From the NCBI GenBank assembly GCA_026391715.1, contig JAPLDO010000045.1, forward strand, positions 7,189-71,188: a stretch of 64,000 nucleotides of DNA, read 5' to 3'. Below the pieces are notes generated by a model that made no database searches, was not told the origin of the DNA, and saw nothing but the letters and a program-made list of their open reading frames with translations. The position numbers and the translations under genes are program-made. The stretch is from Bacteroidota bacterium. Its GTDB lineage: Bacteria; Bacteroidota; Bacteroidia; Bacteroidales; FEN-979. Shown piece after piece: positions 18,977-61,001 of this stretch (position 1 is its first letter; every line of letters starts with the position of its first letter).

Positions 18977-19313
18977 CGTTCTGCTGAAAATGGCGCAGAA
19001 GGTTAAATAAGAATAAAAGGTTTCATTAAATATTACAATAACCACCTTCTAACTCAAAACAGGTTAGAACCATTTATTTATAAAATTTCAAGTCCCAAAT
19101 TTCAAGCGCCAAATCCCAAGGGAAAAACAAGAGAAAGTAATGGTTTGACAATCCTTAAAATCACGGATTTTGAATTTGCGATTTGGATTTTGCGATCAGA
19201 ATGTCATAATTTAACCCGTTTGCAGTAATATAACGTTACCCGGTGCGTCACAAAAATTCAGTCTTCGCCGGAAGTTTGAAAAATGGCTGAACATTGAACC
19301 AAAAACAACTTCT

Positions 19314-21650
19314 TTGCAACCTGTAGAAGACGAAACGCTGAAACGTACTATTTTTGGAGTTGCCAGTGATATATCAAAAATCAAGTTCTCAGAAGAAAAG
19401 TTTGCAAAATTATTTCAAATCAATCCATCGGCTTGTTGTTTGATTGATCCTGACAATCACAAATACCTTGAAGTGAATGAAGCATTTTGCAGTTTGCTTG
19501 GATTCAGCAACCATGAATTAATTGGTAAAACAGCGCTGGATTTAGGTGTTGTAACCCCGGAAATAATACATGCCGTATCGCAGAAAGCCGATACCAATGG
19601 TAAGGTAACCAACGTGGAAACCGAGTTGAAAACGAAAAACGGCGGTATCAAACATGTGCTGTTCTCAGCGGAAAATATCTATCTGCAAGACAAAAAATAC
19701 TGTTTTACTGTTGTTAATGACATCACCGACCGCAAGCAGGTGGAGGAGGCTTTGATTGAAAGCGAAAAACGGCTAAATCTTGCTCTTTCTGTTGCAAAAA
19801 TGGCATATTGGCGATTTGAAATCGCCACTAATAAGGTCGAGTGGTCGGAAGGGCATCAGGTTCTATTCGGCATTTCAATGGAAGAATTTGCAGAAACACT
19901 GGACGATGTACAGAACCATGTTCATGAAGAAGATCGGGAGTATGGCGAAAAAAACCTTGAGAGAACCATAAAAGAGAATGTTCCTTTTGACAATACCTAC
20001 CGTGTAATCTATCCTAACGGCGATATTCATTGGTTACATTCCTTTGGGTACCTTTTCAACAATGCACAAGGCGCTCCTGATCACGTTTTTGGTGTAACTC
20101 AGGATATCACGGATCAGAAAAGTACAGAAAACGAACTTAGAAAATTATCCCGCGCTGTGGAGCAAAGCCCTGCTTCTATTCTAATAACCGAACCTGATGG
20201 GAAAATTGTTTATGGAAATCCCAAAGTTTGTGAACTTACCGGGTATCCAATCGAGGAGTTGCTTGGGCAAAACCCCAGAATTATGCAGTCGGGCGAAACT
20301 CCCAGAGAAACCTATAAAATCCTTTGGGACGCCATCCTTTCAGGTAATGAATACCGAAATGAATTCATTAACAAAAAGAAAAATGGGGAATTATATTGGG
20401 AATCTGTGTCCATTTCTCCTATCGTTGATTCCAGAGGAAAAATAATCAATTTTCTGGCAGTGAAAGAGGATATTAATGAAAGAAAAAAAATGATTGCCAG
20501 TTTACAGGAAGCATTGGTAAAAGCCGAATCCGCAGATCTGTTGAAAAAGGCTTTCATACAGAACATCTCCCACGAAATCCGTACGCCCATGAATAGTATC
20601 CTTGGATTTGGTCAGCTTACCAGCGATCCTGATCTGACACAGTATGAAAGAGAACGCTATTTTACAATAGTAAAAGCAAGCGCCAATCGGTTAATGAATA
20701 CTGTCACCGATTTTATGGATATATCACTCATCATTTCGGGGAATTTAGAAATACAAAAAAAATATTTTTCCTTTGGTGATTTATTAGATTTATTGTATGT
20801 GACTACAGACAAGTTCATGCCTTCCAGTAAAGCTCAAAACATTGGCTTAACCCTTCAAACGCCGCCGATAACAACCAAATTGAACATATATTCCGACTAC
20901 GAATTGTTGCGTAAGGTATTATCCCATTTGTTGTATAATGCCTTTAAGTTTACTAAGCAGGGAACGGTTTCAGTTGGTTTTGAAGTAAAAGGAAACGAGC
21001 TTGAATTTTTTGTTAAAGATACAGGAGTTGGAATAAACAAAGAATTGCAGGCAATCATTTTCGATAAATTCATGCAGGAAAATCCGTTAGATACCCGCGG
21101 ACACGAAGGCAGCGGGTTAGGTTTATCCATCGCAAAAGGTATTGTTGAACTTATGGGTGGCAATATCTGGCTTGAATCTGTGAAGGGCGAAGGTTCCACC
21201 TTCTTTTTCACGATCCCGGTTTATTTGGTCGGCGATGAAAAACAAGTTCAGAAGGAAACCGCAGTAAGTCCAACTGCCAAACCACTTATCCTTATTGCTG
21301 ATGACGAATTATATGCCGGTTTTTTACTGGAACGGATATTTCATAAAAACGGAATTGATGTTATCGTGGTAGAAAACGGACAACAAGCCATTGACGCGTG
21401 CCGCCAAAACCACACGATATCATTGGTAATGATGGATTTGAAAATGCCTGTCATAAATGGTTTTGAAGCCACGAAACAAATAAAATCCTTCAGACCGGAA
21501 CTGCCTGTTATAGCTCTTACTGCCTTTGCTCTGAGTGGCGATGAAAACAGAGCTTTGGAAAATGGTTGCGATGATTATATTTCAAAACCTTTTGAGCAGG
21601 AGGCAATGTTGAATAAACTTAAAAAGTATGGGATCTATACTGAATCGTAA
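19314..21650 (+). CDS. Cytoplasmic PAS-domain hybrid sensor histidine kinase / response-regulator receiver
   Basis: 778 aa from a TTG start. About three PAS/PAC units (DITDRK, DITDQK, EDINERK ends), H-box ISHEIRTPMNSILGF, HATPase G-boxes DTGVGI and GSGLGLSIAKG, and a REC domain (ILIADDE ... LVMMDLKMP ... K in ISKPF). No TM segments. The start is uncertain. Confidence 0.8.
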   Translation: MQPVEDETLKRTIFGVASDISKIKFSEEKFAKLFQINPSACCLIDPDNHKYLEVNEAFCSLLGFSNHELIGKTALDLGVVTPEIIHAVSQKADTNGKVTNVETELKTKNGGIKHVLFSAENIYLQDKKYCFTVVNDITDRKQVEEALIESEKRLNLALSVAKMAYWRFEIATNKVEWSEGHQVLFGISMEEFAETLDDVQNHVHEEDREYGEKNLERTIKENVPFDNTYRVIYPNGDIHWLHSFGYLFNNAQGAPDHVFGVTQDITDQKSTENELRKLSRAVEQSPASILITEPDGKIVYGNPKVCELTGYPIEELLGQNPRIMQSGETPRETYKILWDAILSGNEYRNEFINKKKNGELYWESVSISPIVDSRGKIINFLAVKEDINERKKMIASLQEALVKAESADLLKKAFIQNISHEIRTPMNSILGFGQLTSDPDLTQYERERYFTIVKASANRLMNTVTDFMDISLIISGNLEIQKKYFSFGDLLDLLYVTTDKFMPSSKAQNIGLTLQTPPITTKLNIYSDYELLRKVLSHLLYNAFKFTKQGTVSVGFEVKGNELEFFVKDTGVGINKELQAIIFDKFMQENPLDTRGHEGSGLGLSIAKGIVELMGGNIWLESVKGEGSTFFFTIPVYLVGDEKQVQKETAVSPTAKPLILIADDELYAGFLLERIFHKNGIDVIVVENGQQAIDACRQNHTISLVMMDLKMPVINGFEATKQIKSFRPELPVIALTAFALSGDENRALENGCDDYISKPFEQEAMLNKLKKYGIYTES

Positions 21651-21666
21651 ATAACCAATCTGAAAA

Positions 21667-22305
21667 ATGGACAAACAAACCATACACTCAAAAGGCTTCG
21701 AAATGGCGCTCCTGGCGCTCGATCAATCAAAAGCCGAATCAATCATTCGCAAAGCAGTGGGCGAGGGTTCCCCGATGGATGTTGCCAGTAAACTGGTGTC
21801 GGATACCCTTCACCGCATCGGCGAGGCATGGGAAGATGGGAAACTGGCGCTTTCACAAGTTTATATGAGCGGCGTAATTTGTGAAGCGATTATTGACAAA
21901 CTGCTACCGCCGGCAAGCCCGCTACGAATGGATCAGCCTAAAATGGCAATTGGCGTTTTTGAGGACTATCATCTGCTGGGAAAACGTATAATTTACTCTA
22001 CTTTACGGGCGAGTGGATTTGAATTGATGGATCTTGGCGGCGGATTAAAAACAGATCATCTGGTGAGAATCGTACAAGACGAAAAAATAAAAATCCTGCT
22101 CTTGTCGGTCTTAATGCTCCCATCTGCCCTCAGAGTGAAAGAGGTAAAAGAAAAATTAGCTGACGCTCAGGTGAAAATTGTGGTAGGAGGCGCTCCTTTT
22201 CGTCTTGATAATCAGCTATGGCTTGAAGTAGGCGCCGACGCCTGCGGAAAGGATTCTGCTGACGCGCTGGAAATTGTAACTAAACTGATGGGGGAAAAGG
22301 TATGA
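21667..22305 (+). CDS. Cobalamin (B12)-binding corrinoid protein, MtaC/MtbC-like
   Basis: 212 aa. An N-terminal helical cap is followed by a Rossmann-like domain carrying the canonical cobalamin signature: DxHxxG (DYHLLG, nt 21964-21981), SxL (LSVLM) and GG (VVGGAP). Confidence 0.8.
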   Translation: MDKQTIHSKGFEMALLALDQSKAESIIRKAVGEGSPMDVASKLVSDTLHRIGEAWEDGKLALSQVYMSGVICEAIIDKLLPPASPLRMDQPKMAIGVFEDYHLLGKRIIYSTLRASGFELMDLGGGLKTDHLVRIVQDEKIKILLLSVLMLPSALRVKEVKEKLADAQVKIVVGGAPFRLDNQLWLEVGADACGKDSADALEIVTKLMGEKV

Positions 22306-23348
22306 AAGCCAATGAAATGACGTCAATGCAACGGGTTTTAACAACTCTCTCGCACAAAGAGCCCGACCGTGTTCCACTTTTTTTGCTGCCAACTATGCAT
22401 GGAGCAAAAGAACTTGGACTGAGCATTAAGGATTATTTTTCGAAAGCCGAAAATGTAGTAGAAGGTCAGTTGCGACTACGCAAAAAATATCGCAACGATT
22501 GTATCTATACTTTTTTTTATGCTCCTTTGGAAATAGAAGCATTTGGCGGAGAAGTTATATATTCCGACGATGGCCCGCCAAACTCAGGAATTCCTTTTAT
22601 CAACGCGATTGAAGATATTAAAAACCTGCAACCTCCTAAAATAAAAGAGACAAAAGCGCTTTACAAAGTATTGCAGGCAACTCAGAAACTGAAAGAGGCG
22701 GTAGGCGACGAAGCGCCAATTATTGGCGTAGTCATGTCGCCTTTCTCGTTACCTGTAATGCAGCTTGGTTTTGACAAATATCTGGAGTTAATGCACTTTC
22801 ACAGCGACTTGTTTAACCATCTGATGCAAATCAATGAGGAATTTTGTGTGGACTGGGCAAATGCACAGCTTCAGGCAGGAGCCACAGCCATTTGTTATTT
22901 CGACCCGGTTTCTTCTACCACCATCATTCCCCGTAATAAATACCTTGAAACGGGTTTCCAAATTGCCAAAAGAACAATTTCCCGGATAGCCGGTCCAACT
23001 GCCACCCATTTTGCCTCGGGTAAATGTTTGAGCATTGTAGATGATGTTTCTCAAACAGGTACTGCGGTTGTTGGAACAAGTTCGCTGGAGGATATTGGCG
23101 CGATGAAGCAAGCATGCAGGGGTAAGCTAACCATTCTTGGAAACCTCAACGGAATTGAGATGCGCCGATGGAGCTCTGCCGACGTTAACCTCATCGTTAA
23201 AGAAACTATCCAAAAAGCAGCCCCGGGTGGCGGTTTTATTTTATCCGATAACCATGGAGAAATCCCATTCCAGGTTCCCGATGAAGCGCTGATGGCTATC
23301 TCCGAAGCCGTGCATACATTCGGAAAATATCCAATATCCGACTTTTAA
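22302..23348 (+). CDS. Uroporphyrinogen-decarboxylase (URO-D) family protein, MtaA/MtbA-like methylcobamide methyltransferase
   Basis: 348 aa. The N-terminus MTSMQRVLTTLSHKEPDRVPLF is typical of MT2-type URO-D family proteins. The ATGA start/stop overlap with the corrinoid gene (22302-22305) indicates translational coupling. Confidence 0.7.
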   Translation: MKANEMTSMQRVLTTLSHKEPDRVPLFLLPTMHGAKELGLSIKDYFSKAENVVEGQLRLRKKYRNDCIYTFFYAPLEIEAFGGEVIYSDDGPPNSGIPFINAIEDIKNLQPPKIKETKALYKVLQATQKLKEAVGDEAPIIGVVMSPFSLPVMQLGFDKYLELMHFHSDLFNHLMQINEEFCVDWANAQLQAGATAICYFDPVSSTTIIPRNKYLETGFQIAKRTISRIAGPTATHFASGKCLSIVDDVSQTGTAVVGTSSLEDIGAMKQACRGKLTILGNLNGIEMRRWSSADVNLIVKETIQKAAPGGGFILSDNHGEIPFQVPDEALMAISEAVHTFGKYPISDF

Positions 23349-25111
23349 TGGACCAAAAACTTTGTCTCTACGTTTGCAGCGCTTACCTCCCTGAAGTCAA
23401 TTATGTCCTTCAATCGGGTGATTTTCCTGACGTAGTAGTTAAAAGTTACGCTTACAATTGTATGACCGCTCCGTTTCGTTACGAAGATCTCCAAATTCCT
23501 GATAAGGAATCCAAGGAGAAATTTACCAAAGTACTGTTAATTGCCGGTTCTTGTTTTCGTTTTACAAAAGAAAATTCCGGGGAAACCCGAAAGTTTGCCT
23601 TTCATAAGTTGGATCATTGCATGGAGTTAATCTTCAGTAAAGAAGCAATCAACCATTTTATTGAAAACAGATATTATATAGTCTCCAACGGCTGGCTTGC
23701 AAAATACAGGGAACACATTGCTGCATGGGGTTTTGATGGCGATATGTCGAAGAAGTTTTTTGGCGAGTCAACCAGCAAAATTCTGCTGCTTGAAACCGGT
23801 ATTTCAAGCGACTTCTTACCCCAACTCAAAGCGCTGTCAGATTACATGGGTTTGCCGTATGAGATTTTGCCAATTGGTATTTCGCATTGCCGGATGTTGA
23901 TAGAAACGCTGATTTTTCAATGGCGGGCAGAAAATGAACAAACCCGATTGATCCAACATATTGCAGCAATTTCCAAAAAAACAGCCGATTATGCTTTGGT
24001 TTTTCATCAATTGCAAAATCTTGTTGAACAGACTCACGAAGAGGAAATTGTCCAGAATATATTTGAGATGCTCAATATCTTTTTTTCCCCAGCAACAATG
24101 GACTATTACCCTATCGAAAATCAACTTCGCATCGGAAAGATATCCTATAATATAAATAGCCCTGTTACATCGGCGCCTTCATTGGCTGGGTTTACCATTG
24201 AGGTTGCTCAACAGGGTGAACTGCTGGGGGTATTTGAGCTTTCAGGTATTGCATTTCCCGGGTTCATGGAGCAATACAAAGATATGAGGCAAATTATCGG
24301 CAGGATGAGCTCATTGGCTATTGCCAATGCAAGGAAATACAAAATTATCCAGGCAAACGAGATGCAGCTTCAGGCGGATGCCATTGAACTCAAGGCGCTA
24401 AATGACAATAAGGATAAATTCTTTTCAATCATCGCTCACGACCTGCGCAGCCCATTCAATGTATTTTTAGGATTGACCAGGTTAATGTCTGAGGATTTAA
24501 GGGATTTGACACATACCGAGATTCAGAAGATGGCAGTGGTTATGAGAAACTCGGCAACCAATCTCTTCCAGTTACTCGAAAACCTGCTTGAGTGGTCGCG
24601 CTCACAAAGGGGATTAATCAAATTTATGCCCGAATCGTTTTTATTGACGTCAATGATTGCCGAAAGCATGCGCCCGTTAATGGATTCAGCCAGTAAAAAG
24701 GGCATTGGAATCAACTACGAAATCCCAAACGATCTGAAAGTTTTTGCTGATGAATCCATGCTGGCGTCAACTATTCGCAATCTGGCTTCCAACGCCGTAA
24801 AATTCAGTCGTAACGGAGGTAATGTCATTATTGCCGCAAAGCCGATACCCGGCAATTCAGTTGAAATTTCCGTAAGGGACACGGGCATTGGAATGAGCGC
24901 CAAAATGGTCAATGATTTATTCCGGCTCGATGTTCAGACAAACCGAAAGGGGACCGATGGCGAACCCAGCGCCGGTTTGGGATTACTGCTTTGCAAGGAT
25001 TTCATCGAAAAGCAGGGTGGAAAGGTATGGGTAGAGAGTGAAGAGGGAAAAGGAAGTATCTTTTTTTTTACCATTCCTCACGAGAAACCTCTTATAGTGA
25101 AAACGGGATAA
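23348..25111 (+). CDS. Sensor histidine kinase with DUF1638-like N-terminal domain and GAF-like middle domain
   Basis: 587 aa with no TM segments. The N-terminal ~200 aa (LCLYVCSAYLPEVNYVL, LLIAGSCF, YYIVSNGWLAKY) resemble DUF1638 by recall. H-box FFSIIAHDLRSPFN, HATPase boxes RDTGIGM and SAGLGLLLCKD. TAATG overlap with the upstream gene (23346-23350). Confidence 0.75.
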   Translation: MDQKLCLYVCSAYLPEVNYVLQSGDFPDVVVKSYAYNCMTAPFRYEDLQIPDKESKEKFTKVLLIAGSCFRFTKENSGETRKFAFHKLDHCMELIFSKEAINHFIENRYYIVSNGWLAKYREHIAAWGFDGDMSKKFFGESTSKILLLETGISSDFLPQLKALSDYMGLPYEILPIGISHCRMLIETLIFQWRAENEQTRLIQHIAAISKKTADYALVFHQLQNLVEQTHEEEIVQNIFEMLNIFFSPATMDYYPIENQLRIGKISYNINSPVTSAPSLAGFTIEVAQQGELLGVFELSGIAFPGFMEQYKDMRQIIGRMSSLAIANARKYKIIQANEMQLQADAIELKALNDNKDKFFSIIAHDLRSPFNVFLGLTRLMSEDLRDLTHTEIQKMAVVMRNSATNLFQLLENLLEWSRSQRGLIKFMPESFLLTSMIAESMRPLMDSASKKGIGINYEIPNDLKVFADESMLASTIRNLASNAVKFSRNGGNVIIAAKPIPGNSVEISVRDTGIGMSAKMVNDLFRLDVQTNRKGTDGEPSAGLGLLLCKDFIEKQGGKVWVESEEGKGSIFFFTIPHEKPLIVKTG

Positions 25112-25150: not shown

Positions 25151-26923
25151 CTATCGTAATTCTGATGTCGCGATTTTGTAGTTCAGCACCAAATTAGTAC
25201 CGGGGTATATTGTTTCAGATTCGTTCAGTAGTTGGATAACCTGCTCAATTGCAAAGTTCATTCTTTGATTAGCCTGGGTATAGATATTCACCGTGAGCCG
25301 ATTGTTTTGATAATCCGGAATAACGTCCGCGGAAGAGTTTATCAAGCTTTTCACCAACGCTCTTTTTTCGTTGACACTTTTCTTGAAATTAGGTGACAAT
25401 AGGTTTGCACAGGAGGTTTCAGCCCTATAGCAGATCATCTTAATGATGTTTTGAAAACGCTTGCTTTCTGTGTTTAGTTTGGTGTATTTAATCTGGTCAG
25501 GCATGTCCTTTATCTTTATCTGACTTGGTATCCGGTCTCTTTTTTCTAACCACGCCTTTTCCTCATCTTCTAATATTTTTAATTCTTCCCTGACGAATAT
25601 CTGTTTTTTCAGGTATTGATTTGTATTGTCTAAATCGTCATTAATATTGTTTTCGATAAGTTCAAATAATGAGGCTTTTCTCCGGCTGATTTTCTCCCTC
25701 ACCTTGCCAATTTTATAGGTTATATTATTGTACTCAGGATTGTTCACAGAAAAGTTTTTATCTATTTGTTCTACTGTATATTGAAGGAGACGGTCAAAGT
25801 CGTAGTCCTGGCGCATGTATTTGAAAAAATTCTCCTGTGTCCAACGGGAAAACATGTATAAAGCAATCATTAGTATGGTTAGCTTCTTATTGGTGGTGAT
25901 CACGCTGGTTTGGTGTCCATCAGATAAACGCCTTATTTCCCTCATCGGCACAGTGTTTAATTCTACCGGTTTTTCTTCCAGTTTCATTTTTGTCTGGTTG
26001 CCTTCAACATCAACTGAATATTCACAGAAACCACCTTCATCCCATCGGTCTTTTACATTTTTTCGGTAAGTAATCACGGCTATGCGGTACTGCTCCCATA
26101 GTTTCTGGAAGAAAACAGGGCTGTAATCTTCCCGGTCAAAGATAATTGTGAAACGGGGAAGGTCGGGATCGTCATGAAGCTGTTGTGCTGTATATTTCAT
26201 TGGCATTTCTTGTAATAATGCCGGGATGATATGTTTGTCCAACATTTCCAGCAACTTCTCATTTACCTCTCCCGTGATATAGAAATATGGCATTCCATTT
26301 CTATTGTTTATCCAAAACTCTTGCATCCCGGGCAGGCATAGCTTTTGCCTTGAAACGTGTTTTTTCCCCAGTTTTGCCTGGTAACCTGTATAAACCTGAA
26401 CATGCCCATCGATATAATAAAATTCGTTTTCTTCTTCCAAAGCCCATTGGTTGGCCAAATCTATGTTCCATTGGGTTGCCTTTTGCTGGATGCATATTTC
26501 TTTTAACTTGCCACGTAAACATTTTGCTTCAGGAACCCGATCCAGTCCCATGATCTTGCCAAATTCACCAGGACTGTAATATTTTAACTTTTCAGGATTT
26601 TTGATTCTTCGCAAGTACATGAATGCCAGAAATAAAACAATAAAATCTATGTAATAGTATCCTTTGGCAAGTTCATGGTAATGATTGTGAAAACTGAACA
26701 ATCCGGTTTGTTCAAGAAATGGCAACAGGAACAAAACACCTGCCCCGGCAACACTTTCACTGGCATCAAATTGTACCGGTGTTGTTTCGATCTGATGGGC
26801 TATTGCCAAAAACCTTTCTTCGATCCTTGTAGCCCCTATGCCGATAAGGTGCGAAGCAAGAATATCCTGTTGATTGCGCTGTGATGGAAAGCTCGGAGCA
26901 GAACCCGTGCTTACAATTTCCAT
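25151..26923 (-). CDS. Putative transposase (orfB), family not determined
   Basis: 590-aa ORF bounded by the inverted repeats, with its stop codon inside the left IR. It is preceded by an HTH orfA with a 13-nt overlap at an A9 run. The FYYIDGHVQVYTG segment is compatible with a DDE-type first Asp region, but this is unverified. Confidence 0.55.
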   Translation of the reverse strand: MEIVSTGSAPSFPSQRNQQDILASHLIGIGATRIEERFLAIAHQIETTPVQFDASESVAGAGVLFLLPFLEQTGLFSFHNHYHELAKGYYYIDFIVLFLAFMYLRRIKNPEKLKYYSPGEFGKIMGLDRVPEAKCLRGKLKEICIQQKATQWNIDLANQWALEEENEFYYIDGHVQVYTGYQAKLGKKHVSRQKLCLPGMQEFWINNRNGMPYFYITGEVNEKLLEMLDKHIIPALLQEMPMKYTAQQLHDDPDLPRFTIIFDREDYSPVFFQKLWEQYRIAVITYRKNVKDRWDEGGFCEYSVDVEGNQTKMKLEEKPVELNTVPMREIRRLSDGHQTSVITTNKKLTILMIALYMFSRWTQENFFKYMRQDYDFDRLLQYTVEQIDKNFSVNNPEYNNITYKIGKVREKISRRKASLFELIENNINDDLDNTNQYLKKQIFVREELKILEDEEKAWLEKRDRIPSQIKIKDMPDQIKYTKLNTESKRFQNIIKMICYRAETSCANLLSPNFKKSVNEKRALVKSLINSSADVIPDYQNNRLTVNIYTQANQRMNFAIEQVIQLLNESETIYPGTNLVLNYKIATSELR

Positions 26924-27387
26924 TTTTTTTTAATGGCGCCCTTCTTTATGTGATATCGTATAGCTCCCTCAGTTACCCCAAGAAGTTTGGCAACATCACA
27001 TACCGAATAAAATTTACTGATCAATTTTTGTGCTTCGCCAAGCATTTCATCTGTAAGCTTATGTGCATCCCCACGCTTTTCCTCCTTATTGAAAAACCAA
27101 TCCGTTCCCTTTTCCCGTAAGGTCTTGGCATATCGCTGCATATTCCGGTTGCTCACTCCTAAGTCCCTTGCAAGGTCAATGGGTGAACAAAGTCCGGTTA
27201 CGACAAGGTTAGCTATAATGTATCGGTAACTGTTAAGATCGTTCTTCTCATGGCAATAAATCGGAGAACCGTTATGAAGATAATAGACAAAATCATCACG
27301 CTCAAACAATCCCACATTCGAATTTATTAACTTTGTCGTTTGTGGAAATATCGGAAGTTGCATTTGCATGTCGCTTTTTTGCTGCAA
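26911..27387 (-). CDS. IS orfA, helix-turn-helix DNA-binding protein
   Basis: 158 aa with two HTH-like segments (IDLARDLGVSNRNMQRYAK and VCDVAKLLGVTEGAIRYHIKKG). It ends in ATT AAA AAA AAA TGG, overlapping the orfB ATG in the -1 frame. Confidence 0.6.
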   Translation of the reverse strand: MQQKSDMQMQLPIFPQTTKLINSNVGLFERDDFVYYLHNGSPIYCHEKNDLNSYRYIIANLVVTGLCSPIDLARDLGVSNRNMQRYAKTLREKGTDWFFNKEEKRGDAHKLTDEMLGEAQKLISKFYSVCDVAKLLGVTEGAIRYHIKKGAIKKKWKL

Positions 27388-27716: not shown

Positions 27717-27800
27717 TACCCGGAGCCGGAATCGAACCGGCACGGACTTGCATCCATTGGTTTTTGAGACCAACGCGTCTACCTATTCCGCCATCCGGGC
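27717..27800 (-). tRNA. tRNA-Leu (anticodon CAA), type II with long variable arm
   Basis: The reverse complement reads GCCCGGATGGCGGAATAGGTAGACGCGTTGGTCTCAAAAACCAATGGATGCAAGTCCGTGCCGGTTCGATTCCGGCTCCGGGTA. It has a 7-bp acceptor stem, anticodon loop CTCAAAA, T-loop GGTTCGATTCC and discriminator A. CCA is not encoded. Confidence 0.9.
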
Positions 27801-30275: not shown

Positions 30276-31727
30276 ATGAAACATGCCTGCCTGCCGTTTG
30301 TCTTGATTTTTCTACTGTTTTGCAATACCTTTATTCTCCCTGGTCAAAATGTTTCACTCCAGACCTGCTTTTCAATCGCACAAAAAAATAACCTCCTGAT
30401 CAGGCAATCGCAGCATAGTATTCTGTCGCGAAAATATGCCCTGGCGGCTGAAAGACTTTCTATACTTCCTTCGGTTGATCTGCTGGCAGGCTACAACTAT
30501 CTGAGCAATCCGCTTACGATAAATCTGCAGACGGTTAAAAATGGAGTGGTTCTCGGCTCGTCACAGCAAAGCGTGTATGCTGCAAATGAAGTTTACCGGC
30601 AAATCACCGGCGAGAACCTGCCGGGACCGGCGCAGCAGGAGATATACAACACGTCTAAAAAAATTATCGAAACGGCTTACCCCGACTACAACCCGGAATT
30701 AAGCCGGCAACAGTATTTTACAGCGGGGTTGTTCGTCAGACAGCCGATTTGGCTTGGAGGCAAGCTGAGTACAGCGCGGAATGTGGCTTCAACAGAGCTT
30801 AAATCGGGGTTGCTAAACCAGCAGATGATCGAAAATGAGTTGGATTTAACTATTGCCATTCAGTACATCCGGATTCTTTATCTTAATACAATCAATGAAC
30901 TGAATAAGGAAACGGTGACGGCTTTTGAGAAAAATGAAAATTTCGCAAATGAACTTGTTAAAAACAACATTATCCCGCCGTACTTCCAAAGCTGGACAAA
31001 AGTTTTGCTTGTGCAAGCGCGAAGCCGTCAAAACAATACGTTGCTCGATAAACAAAATGCCCTCGCAGAAATGAACCGGTTACTTGGCGTTCCGGCAGAT
31101 ACAACCCTTAAAATAGAGGATTCGCTTCGTTACCGGCAAACCGCAATGCAGTCGCCGGAAAATAATCTTTCATTGCAGAATCCGCTGGCGCTGATTGCAG
31201 GAAATAACACGATCCTCGCGCAGACAAACATCAAAGGAGCCAGGTCGCTGCTTCTTCCAAACCTTTTCGGAATTGCCAATATAAACCTTTATCAGAAAGA
31301 CCTTCCTGTTACAACGCCTCCCTGGATGGTTGGATTGGAGCTTCAGTGGAGCCTTTTCGACGGATTCAAAAATTATAAACGGGTTCAGGCGTCGAAACAA
31401 ATTGCAGAGGAAGTTTCGCTACAGGAAGAAAACACCCGTACCGGAATAAATACAAATATTGCGGTTGCGCTAAACAGGCTTAAATCGCTCCGGCAGGATA
31501 TTGCCGCCCTCGACAGCGCCCGAAGCGAGGCGAAAATCACTACTTCGCTCATTGACGAACGCGCCAGAAATAATTTTTCCTCCCCCAAAGATATCAACGA
31601 CGCGCTGATAATTCAGGAAGAGATTGAAAAAACTTATTACGCCGCAGTTTTAGGATATTACATAGCGCTTGCCGAATATTTTAACCTTACCGGCGCTTCA
31701 TACAAGATAACAGAATATTTGAAATAA
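30276..31727 (+). CDS. TolC-family outer-membrane efflux protein
   Basis: 483 aa with a signal peptide and two repeated coiled-coil/barrel halves typical of outer-membrane efflux proteins. It is followed by an HlyD-type adaptor gene. Confidence 0.75.
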   Translation: MKHACLPFVLIFLLFCNTFILPGQNVSLQTCFSIAQKNNLLIRQSQHSILSRKYALAAERLSILPSVDLLAGYNYLSNPLTINLQTVKNGVVLGSSQQSVYAANEVYRQITGENLPGPAQQEIYNTSKKIIETAYPDYNPELSRQQYFTAGLFVRQPIWLGGKLSTARNVASTELKSGLLNQQMIENELDLTIAIQYIRILYLNTINELNKETVTAFEKNENFANELVKNNIIPPYFQSWTKVLLVQARSRQNNTLLDKQNALAEMNRLLGVPADTTLKIEDSLRYRQTAMQSPENNLSLQNPLALIAGNNTILAQTNIKGARSLLLPNLFGIANINLYQKDLPVTTPPWMVGLELQWSLFDGFKNYKRVQASKQIAEEVSLQEENTRTGINTNIAVALNRLKSLRQDIAALDSARSEAKITTSLIDERARNNFSSPKDINDALIIQEEIEKTYYAAVLGYYIALAEYFNLTGASYKITEYLK

Positions 31728-31732
31728 ACCAG

Positions 31733-32725
31733 ATGAAAAAATTCATTACCCAATACTGGACCATCTTCGTTCCGGTTGTAGTTTTGATTGTTGCATTGCT
31801 TTTTCTCATTAAGAGGAGCGGACAAACCGAAGAAAACACGGTTATCGGAATGGCGGATGCAGAATTTATCAATATTTCATCAACCATTCCCGGAAAAATG
31901 GACTCATTGCCGGTCCACGAGGGTGACACCGTAAAGGAAAATCAGCTACTGGCGGTACTCGGCAGTACCGAAGTGCACACATTTCAACAACAGGCGCGGC
32001 TGAACCTCGAAGCTGCAACAATACAACTCGAATTGCTGCGCAAGGGAACGCGTCCCGAACTGATCGGCATGGCGCAGAATCTTTACCAGGTTTCGCAACA
32101 ACAGTATGAAGTTGCAAAGCAAACCAATGAACGGATCGAAAACCTTTATAAAAACCAGGTAATTTCGGGCGAAGAAAGGGATTTGATCCAGTTGCAATAC
32201 CTGGCGTCGAAGCATGAAATGGAATCGGCAAAAATGAACTACGACATGTTGCAGAAAGGCAATCAGCCTGAAATTATTAAAGCCGCGCAGGTTGGCGTTC
32301 AGCAGGCTGAACAGGGGCTTCTCTTATCGCAAACGATAACCGGCGACGCCCGCATTTTTTCGCCCGCCGACGGCATTATTTCATCGGTAGTAATTCACAA
32401 AGGCGAATTTGTTTCTATTGGTTATCCCATTATTACACTGATGAAGAAAGGCACACAATTCATAAGGTTCAACCTCAGGCAGGATAAGATGAAAGGAATT
32501 GAGCCGGGGAAGGTTTTCAACGTCAAAATGCCCGGTTGCGAGCCGGAAACATTTGAAACCAGGGTTTCGCACATCGAACCATCGCTTGAATTTGCCGATT
32601 GGGTTCCCACAAAAGAAACAGGACAGTTTGAACTTCGCACTTTTACGGTTGAGTTTGAACTCGTAAACGCTTCATCTATTCGTGGATTTCGTCCCGGTAT
32701 GACTGCCTCATTAATTCTTCCATGA
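31733..32725 (+). CDS. HlyD-family periplasmic adaptor (membrane fusion protein)
   Basis: 330 aa with an N-terminal TM anchor, a lipoyl-like segment (VHEGDTVKENQLLAVL), a long coiled coil and a C-terminal beta-barrel domain. Confidence 0.8.
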   Translation: MKKFITQYWTIFVPVVVLIVALLFLIKRSGQTEENTVIGMADAEFINISSTIPGKMDSLPVHEGDTVKENQLLAVLGSTEVHTFQQQARLNLEAATIQLELLRKGTRPELIGMAQNLYQVSQQQYEVAKQTNERIENLYKNQVISGEERDLIQLQYLASKHEMESAKMNYDMLQKGNQPEIIKAAQVGVQQAEQGLLLSQTITGDARIFSPADGIISSVVIHKGEFVSIGYPIITLMKKGTQFIRFNLRQDKMKGIEPGKVFNVKMPGCEPETFETRVSHIEPSLEFADWVPTKETGQFELRTFTVEFELVNASSIRGFRPGMTASLILP

Positions 32726-32780: not shown

Positions 32781-34373
32781 ATGGCTAAAACAGCAAAGAC
32801 AGAACAAGAAGAACCATTGAAAGTTAAACTCTGGAAAGCAGCCGACAAGCTCCGCAAAAATATGGATGCTGCCGAATACAAACACGTTGCTTTAGGCTTA
32901 ATATTCCTGAAATATATTTCGGATGCTTTTGAGGAACAATATCAAAAATTGGTAGCTCAAAAAAATGAGGGCGCAGATTCCGAAGATAAAAACGAATACA
33001 TAGCAGAAAAGGTGTTTTTTGTCCCGGTTATGGCTCGTTGGACATACATTCAAGGCAGAGCGACACAGCCAACCATAGGCAAAGACATTGATGATGCAAT
33101 GGATGCCATTGAAAAAGACAATCCTTCATTACGTGGCGTTTTGCCAAAAGTATTTGCACAAGAAAAATTAGACAAAACAAGTTTGGGAGGACTGGTTAAT
33201 CTTGTTGGCTCTGCAACATTAGGAACAAAAGAAGCACAGAGCAAGGACTTGTTGGGACAAGTATTTGAATACTTCCTGGGCGAATTTGCTTTAGCGGAAG
33301 GCAAAAAAGGTGGACAGTTTTATACACCTTCAAGTGTTGTGAAATTATTGGTTGAAATGCTTGAACCTTATGAAGGACGTGTATTTGACCCTTGTTGTGG
33401 TAGCGGTGGAATGTTTGTGCAAAGCGAAAAGTTTATCAAATCGCATCAGGACAATTACAAGAAAAAAGGCAAAACTGGTTTGTCATTAAACCCAACCGAC
33501 CGCATTTCAATTTACGGACAAGAGAGTAACCAAACCACCTGGCGTTTGGCAAAAATGAATTTATCTATTCGGGGCATCGACAGCAGTAATGTAAAATGGA
33601 ACAACGAAGGTTCGTTTTTGAACGATGCCCACAAAGATTTGAAAGCTGATTATATTATTGCCAACCCACCGTTTAACGACAGCGATTGGAGCGGCGAACT
33701 ACTGCGTGACGATGCAAGATGGAAGGTGTTGGGTGAAAAACTAACGCCACCAACAGGAAACGCCAACTATGCATGGATTCAACATTTCCTTTACCATTTG
33801 GCGCCCACGGGGCAGGCAGGTTTTGTTTTGTCAAAGGGCGCTTTGACGACCAATACTACAGGCGAAGGCGATATAAGAAAATCTTTGGTAGAAAAAGGTT
33901 TGGTAGATTGCATAGTAAATTTGCCAACAAAATTGTTTTTAAATACGCAAATACCTGCTTGTTTGTGGTTTCTATCCCGAAACAAATCCAATGGTGGTTT
34001 TAGAAAACGAGAAAATGAAATTTTGTTTATTGATGCCCGAAACATGGGTTTTTTGGTAAACCGAAAAAACAGGGAATTAAGCGATGATGATATTTCTTTA
34101 ATTGCAGGTACATATCACAATTGGCGAACGCCGGATGGAAATTATGAAGATGTAGCCGGCTTTTGCAAAGTGGCCACAATAGAAGAAGTAGCTAAGCTTA
34201 ATTATGTATTAACCCCTGGTAGATATGTTGGTTTAGCCGATGAAGAAGACGACTTCAATTTTGTGGAACGCTTTACTTCTTTAAAAACAGAACTGGAAAA
34301 CCAGATTGCCGAAGAAGCAGAACTGAACCGGAAAATTGCAGAGAATTTGTCGAAAATTAAACTACCCAAATAA
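32781..34373 (+). CDS. hsdM: Type I restriction-modification system, DNA methyltransferase subunit
   Basis: 530 aa. AdoMet motif I FDPCCGSGGMF, catalytic motif IV IIANPPFN, and an HsdM N-terminal domain (LWKAADKLRKNMDAAEYKHVALGLIFLKYISD). Confidence 0.9.
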   Translation: MAKTAKTEQEEPLKVKLWKAADKLRKNMDAAEYKHVALGLIFLKYISDAFEEQYQKLVAQKNEGADSEDKNEYIAEKVFFVPVMARWTYIQGRATQPTIGKDIDDAMDAIEKDNPSLRGVLPKVFAQEKLDKTSLGGLVNLVGSATLGTKEAQSKDLLGQVFEYFLGEFALAEGKKGGQFYTPSSVVKLLVEMLEPYEGRVFDPCCGSGGMFVQSEKFIKSHQDNYKKKGKTGLSLNPTDRISIYGQESNQTTWRLAKMNLSIRGIDSSNVKWNNEGSFLNDAHKDLKADYIIANPPFNDSDWSGELLRDDARWKVLGEKLTPPTGNANYAWIQHFLYHLAPTGQAGFVLSKGALTTNTTGEGDIRKSLVEKGLVDCIVNLPTKLFLNTQIPACLWFLSRNKSNGGFRKRENEILFIDARNMGFLVNRKNRELSDDDISLIAGTYHNWRTPDGNYEDVAGFCKVATIEEVAKLNYVLTPGRYVGLADEEDDFNFVERFTSLKTELENQIAEEAELNRKIAENLSKIKLPK

Positions 34374-35215
34374 TGGGAAAGGAAATAACCAAACAAGCTC
34401 TGTCGGTGTTTGAACAAATCCGGCAAACCGATGAAAGCGGGAATGAATTCTGGGCTGCCCGTCAATTGTCCAAGGCTCTTGAATATACCGATTTCAGAAA
34501 CTTTCTTTCAGTAATAGAAAAAGCCAAAGAAGCTTGTAGAAATAGCGGACAGGAGGTCGGGCATCACCTCGTTGAATTCAACGAGGAGATAACTCACGGA
34601 AAAGGCGCTGTTCAAGTTTACCAAAGTTACAAATTGAGTCGTTATGCTTGTTATTTAATTGTACAAAATGCCGATCCATCAAAAGAAATAGTTGCTTTAG
34701 GGCAATCCTATTTTGCCGTGCAAACCCGTTTGCAGGAAATACGCCAGATGGACGAATACAATCGTTTGAGTAGCGAGGATGAAAAACGCTTGTTCCTGCG
34801 CAACGAAATGGCAAAACACAATATCCAACTGGCTGCTGCTGCAAAAGATGCCGGAGTAGTTGAGCCAATTGACTATGCCATCTTTCAAAACCACGGCTAT
34901 ATGGGATTGTACGGTGGGTTGGATGCCAAAGCCATTCACGCAAAAAAAGGTTTGAAGAAAAGCCAGCAGATACTCGACCACATGGGCAGTACCGAATTGG
35001 CAGCCAATTTGTTCCGTGCCACACAAACAGAAGAAAAAATAAAACGTGAAAAAATAAAAGGCAAACAAAAAGCCAATAAAACCCATTTTGAAGTAGGCAA
35101 AAAAGTACGCAAAACCATTGAAGAAATTGGCGGCACCATGCCCGAAAACCTGCCAACAGAAGATAGCATTAAGAAGTTGGAGCCAAAAACCACAAGAAAA
35201 AATCTCACCAAATGA
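34373..35215 (+). CDS. dinD: DNA damage-inducible protein D (DinD)-like protein
   Basis: 280 aa. FEQIRQTDESGNEFWAARQLSKALEYTDFRNF...YKLSRYACYLIVQNADPSKEIVALGQSYFAVQTR matches my recollection of the DinD family. TAATG overlap with hsdM. Confidence 0.65.
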   Translation: MGKEITKQALSVFEQIRQTDESGNEFWAARQLSKALEYTDFRNFLSVIEKAKEACRNSGQEVGHHLVEFNEEITHGKGAVQVYQSYKLSRYACYLIVQNADPSKEIVALGQSYFAVQTRLQEIRQMDEYNRLSSEDEKRLFLRNEMAKHNIQLAAAAKDAGVVEPIDYAIFQNHGYMGLYGGLDAKAIHAKKGLKKSQQILDHMGSTELAANLFRATQTEEKIKREKIKGKQKANKTHFEVGKKVRKTIEEIGGTMPENLPTEDSIKKLEPKTTRKNLTK

Positions 35216-35448
35216 TAGTTCGGGAATTGATAAACCACTTGCAAAACCTGCCACCCGATACCAAAGTGGTGGTAAGAGGCTATGAAGTCGGTTACAATGA
35301 TATCCTTCAATTAAAAAAAGTAAAAATAAAACCCAAGGTTGATGCCCATTGGTATGACGGTGAATTTGAAGACAGCGCCGATGCCGATGCTATTGATGCC
35401 ATTGATTTATTTGGTGAAAACCAAAACCCCATAGACGATTTAAAATGA
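35212..35448 (+). CDS. Small acidic hypothetical protein inside the R-M operon
   Basis: 78-aa ORF with ATGA overlaps to both neighbours (35212-35215 and 35445-35448). No recognisable motif. Confidence 0.5.
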   Translation: MIVRELINHLQNLPPDTKVVVRGYEVGYNDILQLKKVKIKPKVDAHWYDGEFEDSADADAIDAIDLFGENQNPIDDLK

Positions 35449-36704
35449 AAATGGAAAATATCGACAGTGGGGAAATTGAGGTTTATAGTAGGTGGAAGAA
35501 ACTGAAGTTGGGTGAATTATGCTCAAAAATAGGAAGTGGGGCAACACCAACTGGCGGAGGACAAGCATATAAAGAATTTGGTATTTCATTGATTAGAAGT
35601 CAGAATATTCTTGATTTCAAATTTGGTTATGATGGCTTGGCATTTATTGATGACGAACAGGCATTTGCTTTGAAAAATGTAACTGTTCAAGTAAATGATG
35701 TTCTACTAAACATTACAGGCGATAGTGTAGCTAGAGTTTGTAAAGTGCCTTCCGAAGTATTACCTGCAAGAGTCAATCAACACGTTGCAATTTTAAGGGC
35801 GAAAAATGTGGTGTTAAATAATGATTTTTTGCTTTATCAATTACAAGCAAAAAAAGAAAGTTTATTAATTCTTTCAGAAATTGGAGGAACAAGAAATGCT
35901 TTGACAAAAGTTATGATTGAGGATTTTGAAATAAACCTCCCACCACTCCCAGAACAAACAGCCATCGCCTCCATTCTAAGCAGCCTCGATGATAAAATAG
36001 ACCTGCTACACCGCCAAAACAAAACCTTAGAGCAATTGGCTGAAACTCTTTTTAGGCAATGGTTTGTTGAGGAAGCGGAAGTGAGTTGGGCGAATGAAAA
36101 GTTAGGAAAAATATTTGATATAGGAATTGGCAGAACACCACCAAGAAAAGAGCAGCATTGGTTTACATTAAATCCAAATGATGTAAAATGGGTTTCCATT
36201 AAGGATATGGGAACAAGTGGAATTTATATAGATACAGTTTCTGAATATCTTACAAAGGAAGCTGTGGAACAATATAGTGTTCCAGTAATTCCGGCAAACA
36301 CCGTAATATTAAGTTTTAAAATGACGATTGGTCGTTTGGCGATTTCAACTGAAAGAATGGTTTCAAATGAAGCAATTGCACATTTCAAACAAAAAGAAGG
36401 CTCATATTTATTTCCAGAGTTTCTATATCTATTTTTGAAGACTTACAGTTGGGTAGAACTAGGAAGCACTTCGTCAATTGTAGAGTCTATAAACTCACAA
36501 ATGATTAAAGAGATTGAAATGGTTATTCCTGAAAGACAAAAATTAGTTGATTTCAAAGAATTGGTTAAACCAACTTTTGATAAAATCAAATCAAACCAAA
36601 TTCAAATTAGAACCTTAGTTCAAACTCGCGATACGCTTTTGCCAAAGCTAATGAGTGGTGAAGTGAGGGTTTTATTAAACAAGGAGGTTGAATATGAAAA
36701 ATAA
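35445..36704 (+). CDS. hsdS: Type I R-M specificity subunit
   Basis: 419 aa. Two target-recognition halves are separated by the conserved central helix LPPLPEQTAIASILSSLDDKIDLLHRQNKTLEQLAETLFRQWF, and the protein ends in the distal helix TRDTLLPKLMSGEVRV. Confidence 0.9.
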   Translation: MKMENIDSGEIEVYSRWKKLKLGELCSKIGSGATPTGGGQAYKEFGISLIRSQNILDFKFGYDGLAFIDDEQAFALKNVTVQVNDVLLNITGDSVARVCKVPSEVLPARVNQHVAILRAKNVVLNNDFLLYQLQAKKESLLILSEIGGTRNALTKVMIEDFEINLPPLPEQTAIASILSSLDDKIDLLHRQNKTLEQLAETLFRQWFVEEAEVSWANEKLGKIFDIGIGRTPPRKEQHWFTLNPNDVKWVSIKDMGTSGIYIDTVSEYLTKEAVEQYSVPVIPANTVILSFKMTIGRLAISTERMVSNEAIAHFKQKEGSYLFPEFLYLFLKTYSWVELGSTSSIVESINSQMIKEIEMVIPERQKLVDFKELVKPTFDKIKSNQIQIRTLVQTRDTLLPKLMSGEVRVLLNKEVEYEK

Positions 36705-37731
36705 GAACCTCCCAATTCAAAGCGGTTTTACCGAAATACTACTTTACACCACGCCCAACGGTAAGGTAAAAGTAGAAATCTATTTGCAAAACGAAACCAT
36801 TTGGCTAACCCAACAAAAAATAGCCGATTTGTTTGGTGTAGATAGAAGTGTAGTAACAAAGCACCTTGCCAACATATATGCCGAAAACGAATTGAGCAAG
36901 GAATCAACTTGTGCAAAAATTGCACAAGTTCAAAAAGAAGGCGAAAGAACAGTCAATAGGCAAATTGAATTCTATAATCTCGATGTCATTATTTCGGTGG
37001 GTTATCGTGTAAACAGCAGTCAGGCAACCGCGTTTCGCATTTGGGCTACCGAACGGCTTAAGGAATACATCATCAAAGGGTTTACCATGGATGATGAACG
37101 GCTTAAAAACCCAAACAACATTTTTGGTAAAGATTATTTTGAAGAACAGCTTGCACGTATCAGAGACATACGGAGCAGCGAACGCAGGTTTTACCAAAAA
37201 ATAACCGATATATACACACAGTGCAGCGCCGACTATAATGTGGACACAAAAGCCACAAAAGATTTTTTCTCCACGGTTCAAAATAAATTGCATTGGGCTA
37301 TAACAAGGCAAACAGCCGCCGAACTTATCGCCACAAGAGCCGACAATACAAAAGAAAATATGGGTTTAACTTCGTGGAAGAATGCACCCAAAGGAAGTAT
37401 AAGAAAAACAGATGTTGGTATTGCAAAAAACTATTTGAACGAAAAAGAGTTAGACGGTTTAAACAGAATAGTAACCATGTATTTAGATTATGCCGAAAGC
37501 CAAGCCCATAAAGGAATAATGATGTATATGAATGATTGGGTTTTAAAATTAGATGCGTTCCTGCAATTTAATGAAGAAGCTATTCTAATGCATCAAGGCA
37601 AAGTTTCACATGAAATAGCTATTGCGCTTGCCGGGACCGAATATGAAAAATTTAAAATAGCCCAGGACAAATTGATTGAAAGCGATTTTGACAAGGCCAT
37701 AAAAAAACTAAAACCACCAAAAAAGCAATAA
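36688..37731 (+). CDS. rhuM: RhuM-family (virulence-protein RhuM-like) protein
   Basis: 347 aa. EILLYTTPNGKVKVEIYLQNETIWLTQQKIADLFGVDRSVVTKHLANIY... and YNLDVIISVGYRVNS are typical of RhuM-like proteins often embedded in type I R-M loci. Confidence 0.7.
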   Translation: MNMKNKNLPIQSGFTEILLYTTPNGKVKVEIYLQNETIWLTQQKIADLFGVDRSVVTKHLANIYAENELSKESTCAKIAQVQKEGERTVNRQIEFYNLDVIISVGYRVNSSQATAFRIWATERLKEYIIKGFTMDDERLKNPNNIFGKDYFEEQLARIRDIRSSERRFYQKITDIYTQCSADYNVDTKATKDFFSTVQNKLHWAITRQTAAELIATRADNTKENMGLTSWKNAPKGSIRKTDVGIAKNYLNEKELDGLNRIVTMYLDYAESQAHKGIMMYMNDWVLKLDAFLQFNEEAILMHQGKVSHEIAIALAGTEYEKFKIAQDKLIESDFDKAIKKLKPPKKQ

Positions 37732-37733
37732 CC

Positions 37734-43337: not shown

Positions 43338-43347
43338 AAACATAATA

Positions 43348-60885: not shown

Positions 60886-60968
60886 TTGTTACCCTGGAGG
60901 GAGGAATACATTAACCGAATAATTGTTTGTTTTTAAAACAAATATTTGTAGCATTTTGCAACTTTTAC

Positions 60969-60976
60969 TATTTTTG
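60969..60976 (+). promoter_or_regulatory. Candidate -7 box TATTTTTG for the toxin-antitoxin operon
   Basis: Matches TAnnTTTG, 26 nt upstream of ATG 61002 and inside the rejected longer ORF (60927). Confidence 0.45.
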
Positions 60977-61001
60977 CTACATAGATAAGATATTTTGCAA
61001 T

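Follow-up and report, generated by a model that had tools for sequence, protein, structure and literature searches.

In the characterised methylotrophic and O-demethylase systems, among them MtaABC, MttBC/MtbA, MtsA, OdmABCD and Vdm, the gene for a small two-domain corrinoid protein with a DxHxxG motif is coupled translationally to the gene for a protein of the URO-D superfamily. In Methanosarcina, the genes of the cytoplasmic haem-GAF kinases MsmS/RdmS, which probably sense redox state, neighbour those of corrinoid methyltransferases. These archaeal kinases regulate the genes of Mts corrinoid/methyltransferase fusions via Msr regulators; they are not known to contain a DUF1638 domain or to belong to a conserved three-gene cassette. 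Here we analyse a 64,000-nucleotide (nt) stretch of contig JAPLDO010000045.1 from a Bacteroidota bacterium (hereafter the window), and in it a cassette in which the gene of a small two-domain DxHxxG corrinoid protein, likewise coupled translationally to that of a URO-D-superfamily enzyme, is followed by the gene of a cytoplasmic sensor kinase with a DUF1638 and a GAF-like domain. In contrast to the methylotrophic and O-demethylase systems, the cassette has one methyltransferase-like gene instead of an MT1/MT2 pair, is linked neither to a RamA/RACE gene nor to pathway genes, and has a signalling protein as its third gene product. We put at about even the chance that this trio of corrinoid protein, presumed URO-D methyltransferase and sensor kinase is a dedicated and so far uncharacterised sensing cassette coupled to corrinoid chemistry.

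Orphan URO-D and corrinoid genes are also widespread in non-methylotroph anaerobes as the type 1 mlp clusters, which, like the cassette, contain no tetrahydrofolate (H4folate) methyltransferase. In the type 1 mlp clusters, genes for two or three Mlp paralogues are joined by one for a Ram/RACE activator, and genes of sulfur/selenium metabolism lie nearby (Kountz and Balskus, PMC10418091). With its single URO-D gene, no activator and an obligatory DUF1638/GAF sensor, the cassette fails the type 1 mlp cluster definition, and a term search of the mlp paper (PMC10418091) returned no mention of a sensor. DUF1638 itself has been described in Phaeobacter, where methionine synthesis depends on a DUF1638 protein encoded beside the B12-binding component of a split methionine synthase and co-occurring with a RamA-like protein, with no mechanism offered (Price et al., PMC5764234); a 2025 paper restates a reactivation idea for DUF1638 in Ruegeria (PMC12478193). 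The split methionine synthases of Phaeobacter inhibens and Ruegeria pomeroyi resemble the cassette in that DUF1638 is encoded beside a B12-binding protein. There, however, DUF1638 is stand-alone, biosynthetic and has a RamA-like partner, whereas in the cassette it forms the N-terminus of signalling proteins, is fused to a GAF-like domain and has no linked RamA.

Cobalamin-binding domains also serve in signalling in CarH/LitR, AerR and the photocobilins, some of them with outputs such as GGDEF. The photocobilins (PDB 8j2w/x/y) are B12-based light sensors, one of which is fused to GGDEF (PMC10979010). These B12 photoreceptors are single proteins that sense light via adenosyl- or methyl-cobalamin, with a Wx9EH motif in CarH, whereas the cassette has a separate B12 protein of the methyltransferase-partner type, no Wx9EH motif and a dedicated enzyme. 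Among the papers searched, none describes a corrinoid/URO-D/DUF1638-GAF cassette; the earlier note on this DNA, made by a model from the letters alone, likewise named no characterised system with the architecture that it saw. Each part comes from a family already known, and B12-dependent signalling has precedents of other kinds, but for this arrangement we found none that is characterised.

In the window, four genes lie in a row on the + strand: a hybrid histidine kinase gene (19314-21650), the corrinoid protein gene (212 amino acids (aa); 21667-22305), the URO-D-superfamily enzyme gene (348 aa; 22302-23348) and the DUF1638-GAF sensor kinase gene (23348-25111), each defined by its open reading frame (ORF) and Pfam matches. 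The hybrid kinase and corrinoid genes are separated by a 16-nt spacer, the corrinoid and URO-D genes share an ATGA overlap (22302-22305), and the URO-D and sensor genes a TAATG overlap (23346-23350). All four proteins are soluble, with no hydrophobic segment of transmembrane strength in any. The earlier note had given this layout, and its coordinates all hold; profile hidden Markov model searches against Pfam likewise back its B12-binding, URO-D, DUF1638, PAS, HisKA, HATPase_c and receiver assignments. It had, in addition, taken the four genes together as the unit of interest, and on this point the comparison with other genomes gives a different picture.

Two surveys of related loci, one from the sensor side and one from the enzyme side, bear on the extent of the conserved unit. 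A word-indexed search with the sensor region returned 25 full-length relatives, and a subsequent scan of one genome per species gave 43 loci, all from metagenome-assembled genomes and, by record names, from Bacteroidota, Ignavibacteria/Melioribacteraceae, Victivallaceae, Cloacimonetes, Bacillota and Spirochaetales. Independently of the sensor, 80 metagenome loci were retrieved with the enzyme alone. The sensor-side loci were analysed by ORF calling and phmmer, and flanking ORFs were clustered all-against-all in 45 and 80 loci.

In the sensor-side survey, order and strand of the corrinoid, URO-D and sensor genes are kept in 35 of the 37 loci with enough upstream DNA, and in 21 of these 35 the corrinoid and URO-D genes overlap by 4 nt. 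From the enzyme side, a sensor gene lies immediately downstream of the enzyme in 67 of the 72 metagenome loci with enough DNA (a DUF1638 sensor in 58, a GAF-like-only protein in 9, and another gene in the remaining 5), and a corrinoid gene lies upstream of the enzyme in 67 of 73. The GAF-like-only partners are either GAF-kinases of ~395-401 aa or proteins of ~240-276 aa with a GAF domain and a Cys-rich tail. Loci that were inspected individually agree with both surveys. Within ±5-8 kb of the cassette, the corrinoid, URO-D and sensor families are the only ones conserved, and dozens of genomes with no close relationship share their order, an arrangement beyond chance that extends over about nine phylum-level groups by record names. 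The conserved unit is a three-gene one, namely the corrinoid protein, the URO-D enzyme and the DUF1638/GAF-like sensor. Median identity to the window is highest for the enzyme (70%) and the corrinoid protein (63%), followed by the kinase core (44%), DUF1638 (38%) and the GAF-like domain (37%). The carriers are, again by record names, mostly anaerobes of sediments, groundwater and digesters. We note two exceptions: in a Melioribacteraceae locus (L013, 8001-9752) a DUF1638 kinase has no corrinoid or URO-D gene upstream and three kinase genes downstream, and in a Prolixibacteraceae locus (L049, 8001-10523) the DUF1638 reading frame is split in two.

The hybrid kinase gene at the head of the row falls outside this core because its presence is patchy. 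Of 35 loci, only 12 have a further kinase directly upstream of the cassette and 15 have one on either side; these neighbouring kinases vary in length and architecture between loci and are not orthologous. Consequently, the block of kinase, corrinoid protein, MtaA-like enzyme and kinase put forward in the earlier note does not stand as the unit, and the PAS hybrid kinase is an optional companion of the cassette, although it could join a phosphorelay with it. The gene product itself is the soluble, PAS-rich hybrid kinase/receiver that had been described: Pfam finds PAS domains, HisKA (His420), HATPase_c and Response_reg (Asp708). The TTG at 19314 is its only start codon, the frame being otherwise open. 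In a Bacteroidota metagenome-assembled genome (L008, 94% identical), the kinase starts at an ATG 32 codons further upstream, and comparison of window 19215-19316 with L008 3871-3970 reveals a 35-nt deletion in an A-rich run of the window that takes this ATG and about eight codons (junction at 19240..19241, + strand, from the DNA alignment and the L008 translation). Translation of the hybrid kinase may begin at the TTG, the gene may be damaged, or the missing 35 nt may reflect an error in the assembly.

The 535-nt spacer upstream of the four genes is well conserved. It holds two pairs of tandem 14-nt repeats at 19083-19110 and 19166-19193 (AAATTTCAAGnnCC twice and GATTTnGAnTTTGC twice), roughly mutually inverted and kept in L008. 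A structured RNA in the spacer was considered and dropped, as folding equals that of shuffles (z = 0.09); since it folds no better than shuffled sequence, the repeats may be protein-binding sites. The divergent gene upstream in the window encodes a TPR-LuxR protein without a receiver. Between this gene and a 273-aa ORF lies a 759-aa ORF without a Pfam match (14300-16579, −), which looks like a 2.3-kb insertion because its flanking genes are ~380 nt apart in L008.

Within the trio, the corrinoid protein is composed of a B12-binding_2 helical cap (PF02607 at 4.5e-10) and a following B12-binding Rossmann domain (PF02310 at 7.2e-17), as judged by Pfam. The full DxHxxG/SxL/GG signature reported for this 212-aa protein is indeed present as DYHLLG (D100-Y-H102-L-L-G105; 21964..21981, + strand), S147-V-L149 and G174-G175. 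Across 38 orthologues, residues H102, G105, S147, G174 and G175 do not vary, and His102 is presumed to be the lower axial cobalt ligand. The closest PDB relatives are MttC (7xcn), MtmC (3ezx) and the O-demethylase corrinoid protein of D. hafniense (4jgi). The protein remains far below the cut-off of each of the NCBIfam models for MtbC, MtgC and MtaC and, with 79.6 bits, under the cut-off of 215.3 for TIGR02370. Similarity is 5e-16 to MttC compared with 1e-4 to CarH, and in its sequence the protein appears to be of the type that partners methyltransferases.

A CarH-type photoreceptor was considered and rejected: the protein has no Wx9EH motif, its similarity to CarH is low, Pfam finds no helix-turn-helix (HTH) domain, and the CarH equivalog model gives 46.9 bits against a cut-off of 400. 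The light state, which had been named among the signals that such a corrinoid might convey, is thus disfavoured in its CarH form because the Wx9EH motif is missing. Some cassettes have a second corrinoid-protein gene within several kb past the sensor kinase, and four loci also have a conserved ORF of 153 aa that matches no Pfam model and in L015 directly follows this second corrinoid gene (L015, 15709-16837; also L020, L031 and L043).

The second protein of the trio is a full-length enzyme of the URO-D TIM-barrel superfamily (PF01208 at 3.9e-56, residues 7-339; Pfam), and, in contrast to the enzymes of the methylotrophic systems, it scores below every NCBIfam cut-off: 98.6 bits against 235.4 for TIGR01463, 102.1 against 244 for NF004889, 85.4 against 400 for MtaA, 73.6 against 600 for MtbA and 57.3 against 303 for the hemE model TIGR01464. 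The profile of the enzyme family is nearly equidistant from MtaA (7e-15) and HemE (1e-13). The ligands of the zinc site in MtaA include a His-x-Cys motif. In PDB alignments, the MtaA 'HiC' falls on H236-F-A238/S239 of the enzyme, so that the His is kept and the Cys replaced; A238 and S239 are invariant in the family, and the alignment with MtaA ends before the region of the C-terminal zinc-ligand cysteine. An 'EAxG' stretch is common to the enzyme and MtaA. In HemE (UROD), the catalytic Asp sits in an 'SDIL' motif. The profile alignment places HemE 'fsDil' opposite 'fyap' of the enzyme family, with no Asp there, and the invariant D316-N-H318-G-E320 of the family aligns with the HemE 'GHG' motif.

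A true MtaA can be rejected on the basis of the scores under the curated cut-offs and the missing HxC cysteine, and a true HemE on the basis of its score and the catalytic Asp, which is not conserved. The label 'MtaA/MtbA-like' given in the earlier note therefore holds at the level of the superfamily but not for the metal site or the NCBIfam cut-offs. We presume that the enzyme is a corrinoid methyltransferase of an uncharacterised, very conserved URO-D subfamily, its methyltransferase activity being assumed because it is paired with a corrinoid protein. Homologues form 4288 clusters at E ≤ 1e-10; the best 120 of these 4288 all have at least 69% identity and include Aminicenantes, Thermodesulfovibrio and Candidatus Parabeggiatoa. 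Long domain-less ORFs that cluster together in 13 loci, and in L087 (159-2180, −) run antisense across the URO-D gene, are probably an artefact of composition and conservation and not a gene.

The sensor kinase comprises (I) the DUF1638 domain, an alpha/beta fold according to Pfam and AlphaFold models (residues 1-190; 23348..23917, + strand), (II) the GAF-like domain identified with Foldseek (residues ~191-340; 23918..24367, +), (III) a linker helix (24368-24409, +), and (IV) a kinase core with HisKA (His364 at 24437) and HATPase_c (24410-25084, +), delimited by Pfam, the family alignment and PDB kinase matches, followed by a C-terminal tail and the stop codon (to 25111, +). DUF1638 (PF07796) is matched over residues 55-184 with 36.9 bits against a gathering cut-off of 27, and homologues match too. 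At E ≤ 0.01, Pfam reports no GAF family for the protein. In the AlphaFold model of residues 1-340 (pLDDT 79.5), however, Foldseek matches residues ~190-340 to the GAF domains of Lcd1 (5w10), Nlh1 (4g3k) and KdpD (4y2f) with probability 1.0. The second soluble kinase with a DUF1638-like and a GAF-like sensor region is thus recovered as first read, DUF1638 by Pfam and GAF by predicted fold only. Both kinases of the four-gene row match HisKA and HATPase_c in Pfam, and the motifs of the sensor kinase, including the N, G1 and G2 boxes, are intact, with H364, N478/N482, D511-x-G-x-G and G543-L-G-L conserved in the sensor family.

A DUF1638 profile search without word filter over 1.84 billion representative proteins gave 1281 representative clusters, of which 468 reach E ≤ 1e-30; the best 150 of the 1281, nearly all of the sensor type, together with earlier matches make up a set of 171 sequences. 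In these 171, DUF1638 is always N-terminal, and its four cysteines C10 (23375), C38 (23459), C69 (23552) and C91 (23618) are 95-98% conserved. In the predicted alpha/beta fold (domain-alone model, pLDDT 84, pTM 0.81), all four are located at or just past the C-terminal ends of beta-strands 1-4. Position and conservation of the cysteines together suggest a candidate metal or iron-sulfur site in the modelled domain. No solved structural relative of DUF1638 was found by sequence, and by fold the best match has E 0.01 with TM ≤ 0.4; the model bears only a vague resemblance to two-lobed alpha/beta proteins.

What follows the GAF-like domain varies. Across the 171 sequences and the related loci, the outputs are mostly HisKA kinases, with or without PAS or receiver domains, and otherwise HisKA_2/HWE and HisKA_3 kinases, GGDEF, or a small Cys-rich domain with the motif LPICxxCKKIRD...HGxCPxC (also LPICxxCKKIRDDxGxW...HGxCPxC) and no Pfam match. 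A single input combined with many outputs, as seen for DUF1638-GAF, is typical of a sensory input module. The Cys-rich domain takes the place of the kinase in P0026 (L051, 4135-5400), L054 (8034-8726) and L055 (7014-7772). DUF1638 is missing from ~12% of cassettes, for instance from the 9 of 72 mentioned above and from L054 and L055, and it cannot be the sole reader since these keep the GAF-like domain only. In fact, the GAF-like domain is the only sensor element found in essentially every partner of the corrinoid/URO-D pair. Its conservation is strongest in its first helix and its last (ADY and ANARKY), and because it is present in all variants and its terminal helices are the most conserved part, we weakly favour the possibility that it works by protein docking rather than by binding a ligand in its pocket.

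Components of a complete methyl-transfer pathway were looked for throughout the 64-kb window, and no MT1 family, MtrH, RamA/RACE (DUF4445), cobamide synthesis gene or dedicated transporter was found in it. Similarly, clustering of the flanks within ±5-8 kb gave no MT1, MtrH, RamA/RACE, cobamide synthesis gene, transporter, catabolic gene or DNA-binding response regulator that is conserved near the cassette. The earlier note had listed MT1, RamA, catabolic genes, transporters and DNA-binding response regulators as lacking from the four genes, which is correct for these and extends to conserved neighbours elsewhere. The step from there to a non-metabolic role holds in part. MT1 is missing, but this argument is weak alone because the URO-D superfamily includes substrate-side methyltransferases, the O-demethylases OdmB and VdmB (PMC10418091). 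The four-gene row contains no cognate response regulator with an output domain, and its flanks are the TPR-LuxR gene and an insertion sequence. No cobalamin riboswitch or other Rfam family is found near it, the sole match in the 64 kb being a tRNA. In one Bacteroidota relative (L005, 16206-21734), the cassette lies 5-10 kb from cobamide salvage genes encoding a His_Phos_1 phosphatase-family protein, CobS, DBI_PRT (CobT-like) and CobU, and from uptake-type genes for a Peripla_BP_2 binding protein and a TonB-dependent receptor; this cluster is absent from the window and from the other loci inspected.

Taken as a sensing cassette, the trio would work as follows. The URO-D enzyme would exchange methyl groups between the corrinoid cobalt and a small molecule, and the state of the corrinoid (methyl-Co(III), Co(I) or oxidised Co(II)) would therefore report the availability of that molecule and/or a very low redox potential or oxygen. 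The GAF-like domain would read this state via protein contact, helped in most family members by the Cys4 DUF1638. The signal would then pass from the sensor through the helical linker to the kinase, and by phosphotransfer to unlinked regulators and possibly also to the receiver of the adjacent hybrid kinase. Domain content, tight gene coupling, conservation of the trio and modular outputs are direct observations; that the enzyme transfers methyl groups, that the sensor reads the corrinoid state directly and what the signal is are inferences. Methylation of the Cys4 by the URO-D enzyme in the manner of Ada was considered as a general signal and is unlikely, given that cassettes without DUF1638 exist.

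Several points weigh against this proposal. The enzyme subfamily, as far as its sequence tells, is equally far from MtaA and HemE and has no MtaA zinc-binding cysteine. Cycling through Co(I) usually depends on a reductive activator, and the cassette has no linked gene for one; the activator may be encoded elsewhere, or the signal may consist in part of the oxidative inactivation of Co(I). The role of DUF1638 is not general, as seen from the cassettes that do without it, and nearly all members come from metagenome-assembled genomes. Finally, the GAF-like domain might bind a small-molecule substrate or product, in which case the corrinoid state would not be read.

The same genes could also be explained as a metabolic methyltransferase pair with a local regulator, the rest of the pathway being encoded elsewhere and DUF1638 acting as a fused corrinoid maintenance factor, while the DUF1638-GAF kinase responds to the substrate or a different cue and has no function beyond setting the expression of the pair. 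URO-D enzymes with corrinoid proteins are known as catabolic methyltransferases (coenzyme M (CoM) methyltransferases, OdmB and VdmB; PMC10418091), DUF1638 is tied to B12-dependent methyl transfer and not to signalling in Phaeobacter, and the type 1 mlp clusters likewise do without an in-cluster H4folate methyltransferase. We nevertheless consider this explanation unlikely. The sensor follows the enzyme in 67 of 72 loci, mostly in overlapping or near-abutting frames, whereas a second methyltransferase, an activator, a transporter or a pathway gene is not conserved alongside in any phylum, and no conserved DNA-binding response regulator lies nearby. GGDEF and Cys-rich outputs do not work as local transcription regulators, and the conservation of the enzyme is far above that of the sensor. 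The original suggestion of a signalling module in place of a methylotrophy operon is accordingly backed by the comparative genomics, through the linkage of the sensor and the lack of conserved metabolic partners, with the amendment that the unit has three genes and not four.

Sensing might instead reside in the Cys4 site or in the corrinoid protein itself. If the Cys4 of DUF1638 were a redox or oxygen sensor with an iron-sulfur cluster or metal, the corrinoid protein and URO-D enzyme would be electron or methyl partners; the near-invariance of C10, C38, C69 and C91 at the strand ends among the 171 sequences, the co-occurrence of DUF1638 with the RamA reductive activator in alphaproteobacteria and the presence of the cassette mostly in anaerobes are consistent with such a role. 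It cannot be general, however, because some cassettes have no DUF1638 and a GAF-like sensor only, and there is no solved relative with a cluster for comparison, and we regard this possibility as quite improbable. Of similarly low, if anything lower, probability is a sensor of cobamide availability (apo versus holo protein) or of light through photolysis of methyl- or adenosyl-cobamide, akin to CarH/LitR, AerR and the photocobilins. The complete DxHxxG/SxL/GG signature fits with it, light sensing by B12-binding domains is established, also for a GGDEF-fused form (PDB 8j2y; PMC10979010), and L005 has its cobamide salvage and uptake-type genes 5-10 kb away. Against this stand the missing Wx9EH motif of CarH, the much closer similarity to MttC than to CarH, carriers that are mostly anaerobes of sediments, groundwater and digesters, and a window with no cobalamin riboswitch; a dedicated, extremely conserved URO-D enzyme would moreover be needless for sensing the holo or apo state.

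Beyond the cassette, an insertion sequence (25151-27387, −) with a Transposase_29 ORF and a small HTH ORF starts 40 nt past the stop codon of the sensor kinase and is adjoined by a tRNA gene (27717-27800, −). Synteny with L008 is lost at this insertion sequence downstream of the sensor kinase: L008 continues with genes for a type IX secretion system (T9SS)-tailed protein, OsmC, thioredoxin and DUF302, the window with prs-L25-pth. Further downstream in the window, a type I restriction-modification island of low GC (0.37-0.42) encoding HsdM, Bro-N, HsdS, RhuM and HsdR (32781-39503, +) splits an apparent efflux operon into OEP/HlyD genes (30276-32725) and two ABC-2 permease genes (39509-41856). 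A pyridoxal-dependent decarboxylase gene followed by an amino-acid permease gene (41943-44778, +) may be a pair of the acid-resistance type, and a patch of low GC further on contains an HTH-SocA/Panacea antitoxin-like gene (60927-61805, +).

The family is large and environmentally widespread, with its 1281 DUF1638 clusters and 4288 clusters of URO-D homologues, and it has escaped study so far because almost all carriers seen are metagenome-assembled genomes. It offers a tractable handle on DUF1638, which is genetically required for the split methionine synthase in marine Rhodobacterales, and, if our proposal is true, it would give DUF1638 its first molecular role, in docking the corrinoid protein and reading its state. 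The cassette could also account for some of the 'orphan' corrinoid/URO-D pairs in non-methylotroph anaerobes. If it senses by corrinoid chemistry, an enzyme-coupled, dark form of B12 signalling would stand beside the light-sensing B12 regulators. Should the mechanism hold, which we think possible though somewhat short of an even chance, it would represent a new sensing principle, in which the half-reaction of corrinoid methyl transfer serves as perception and a DUF1638/GAF-like module reads cobalt methylation or oxidation on a small carrier protein and relays it, depending on the lineage, to histidine kinases, c-di-GMP synthesis or a Cys-rich output across about nine bacterial phyla.

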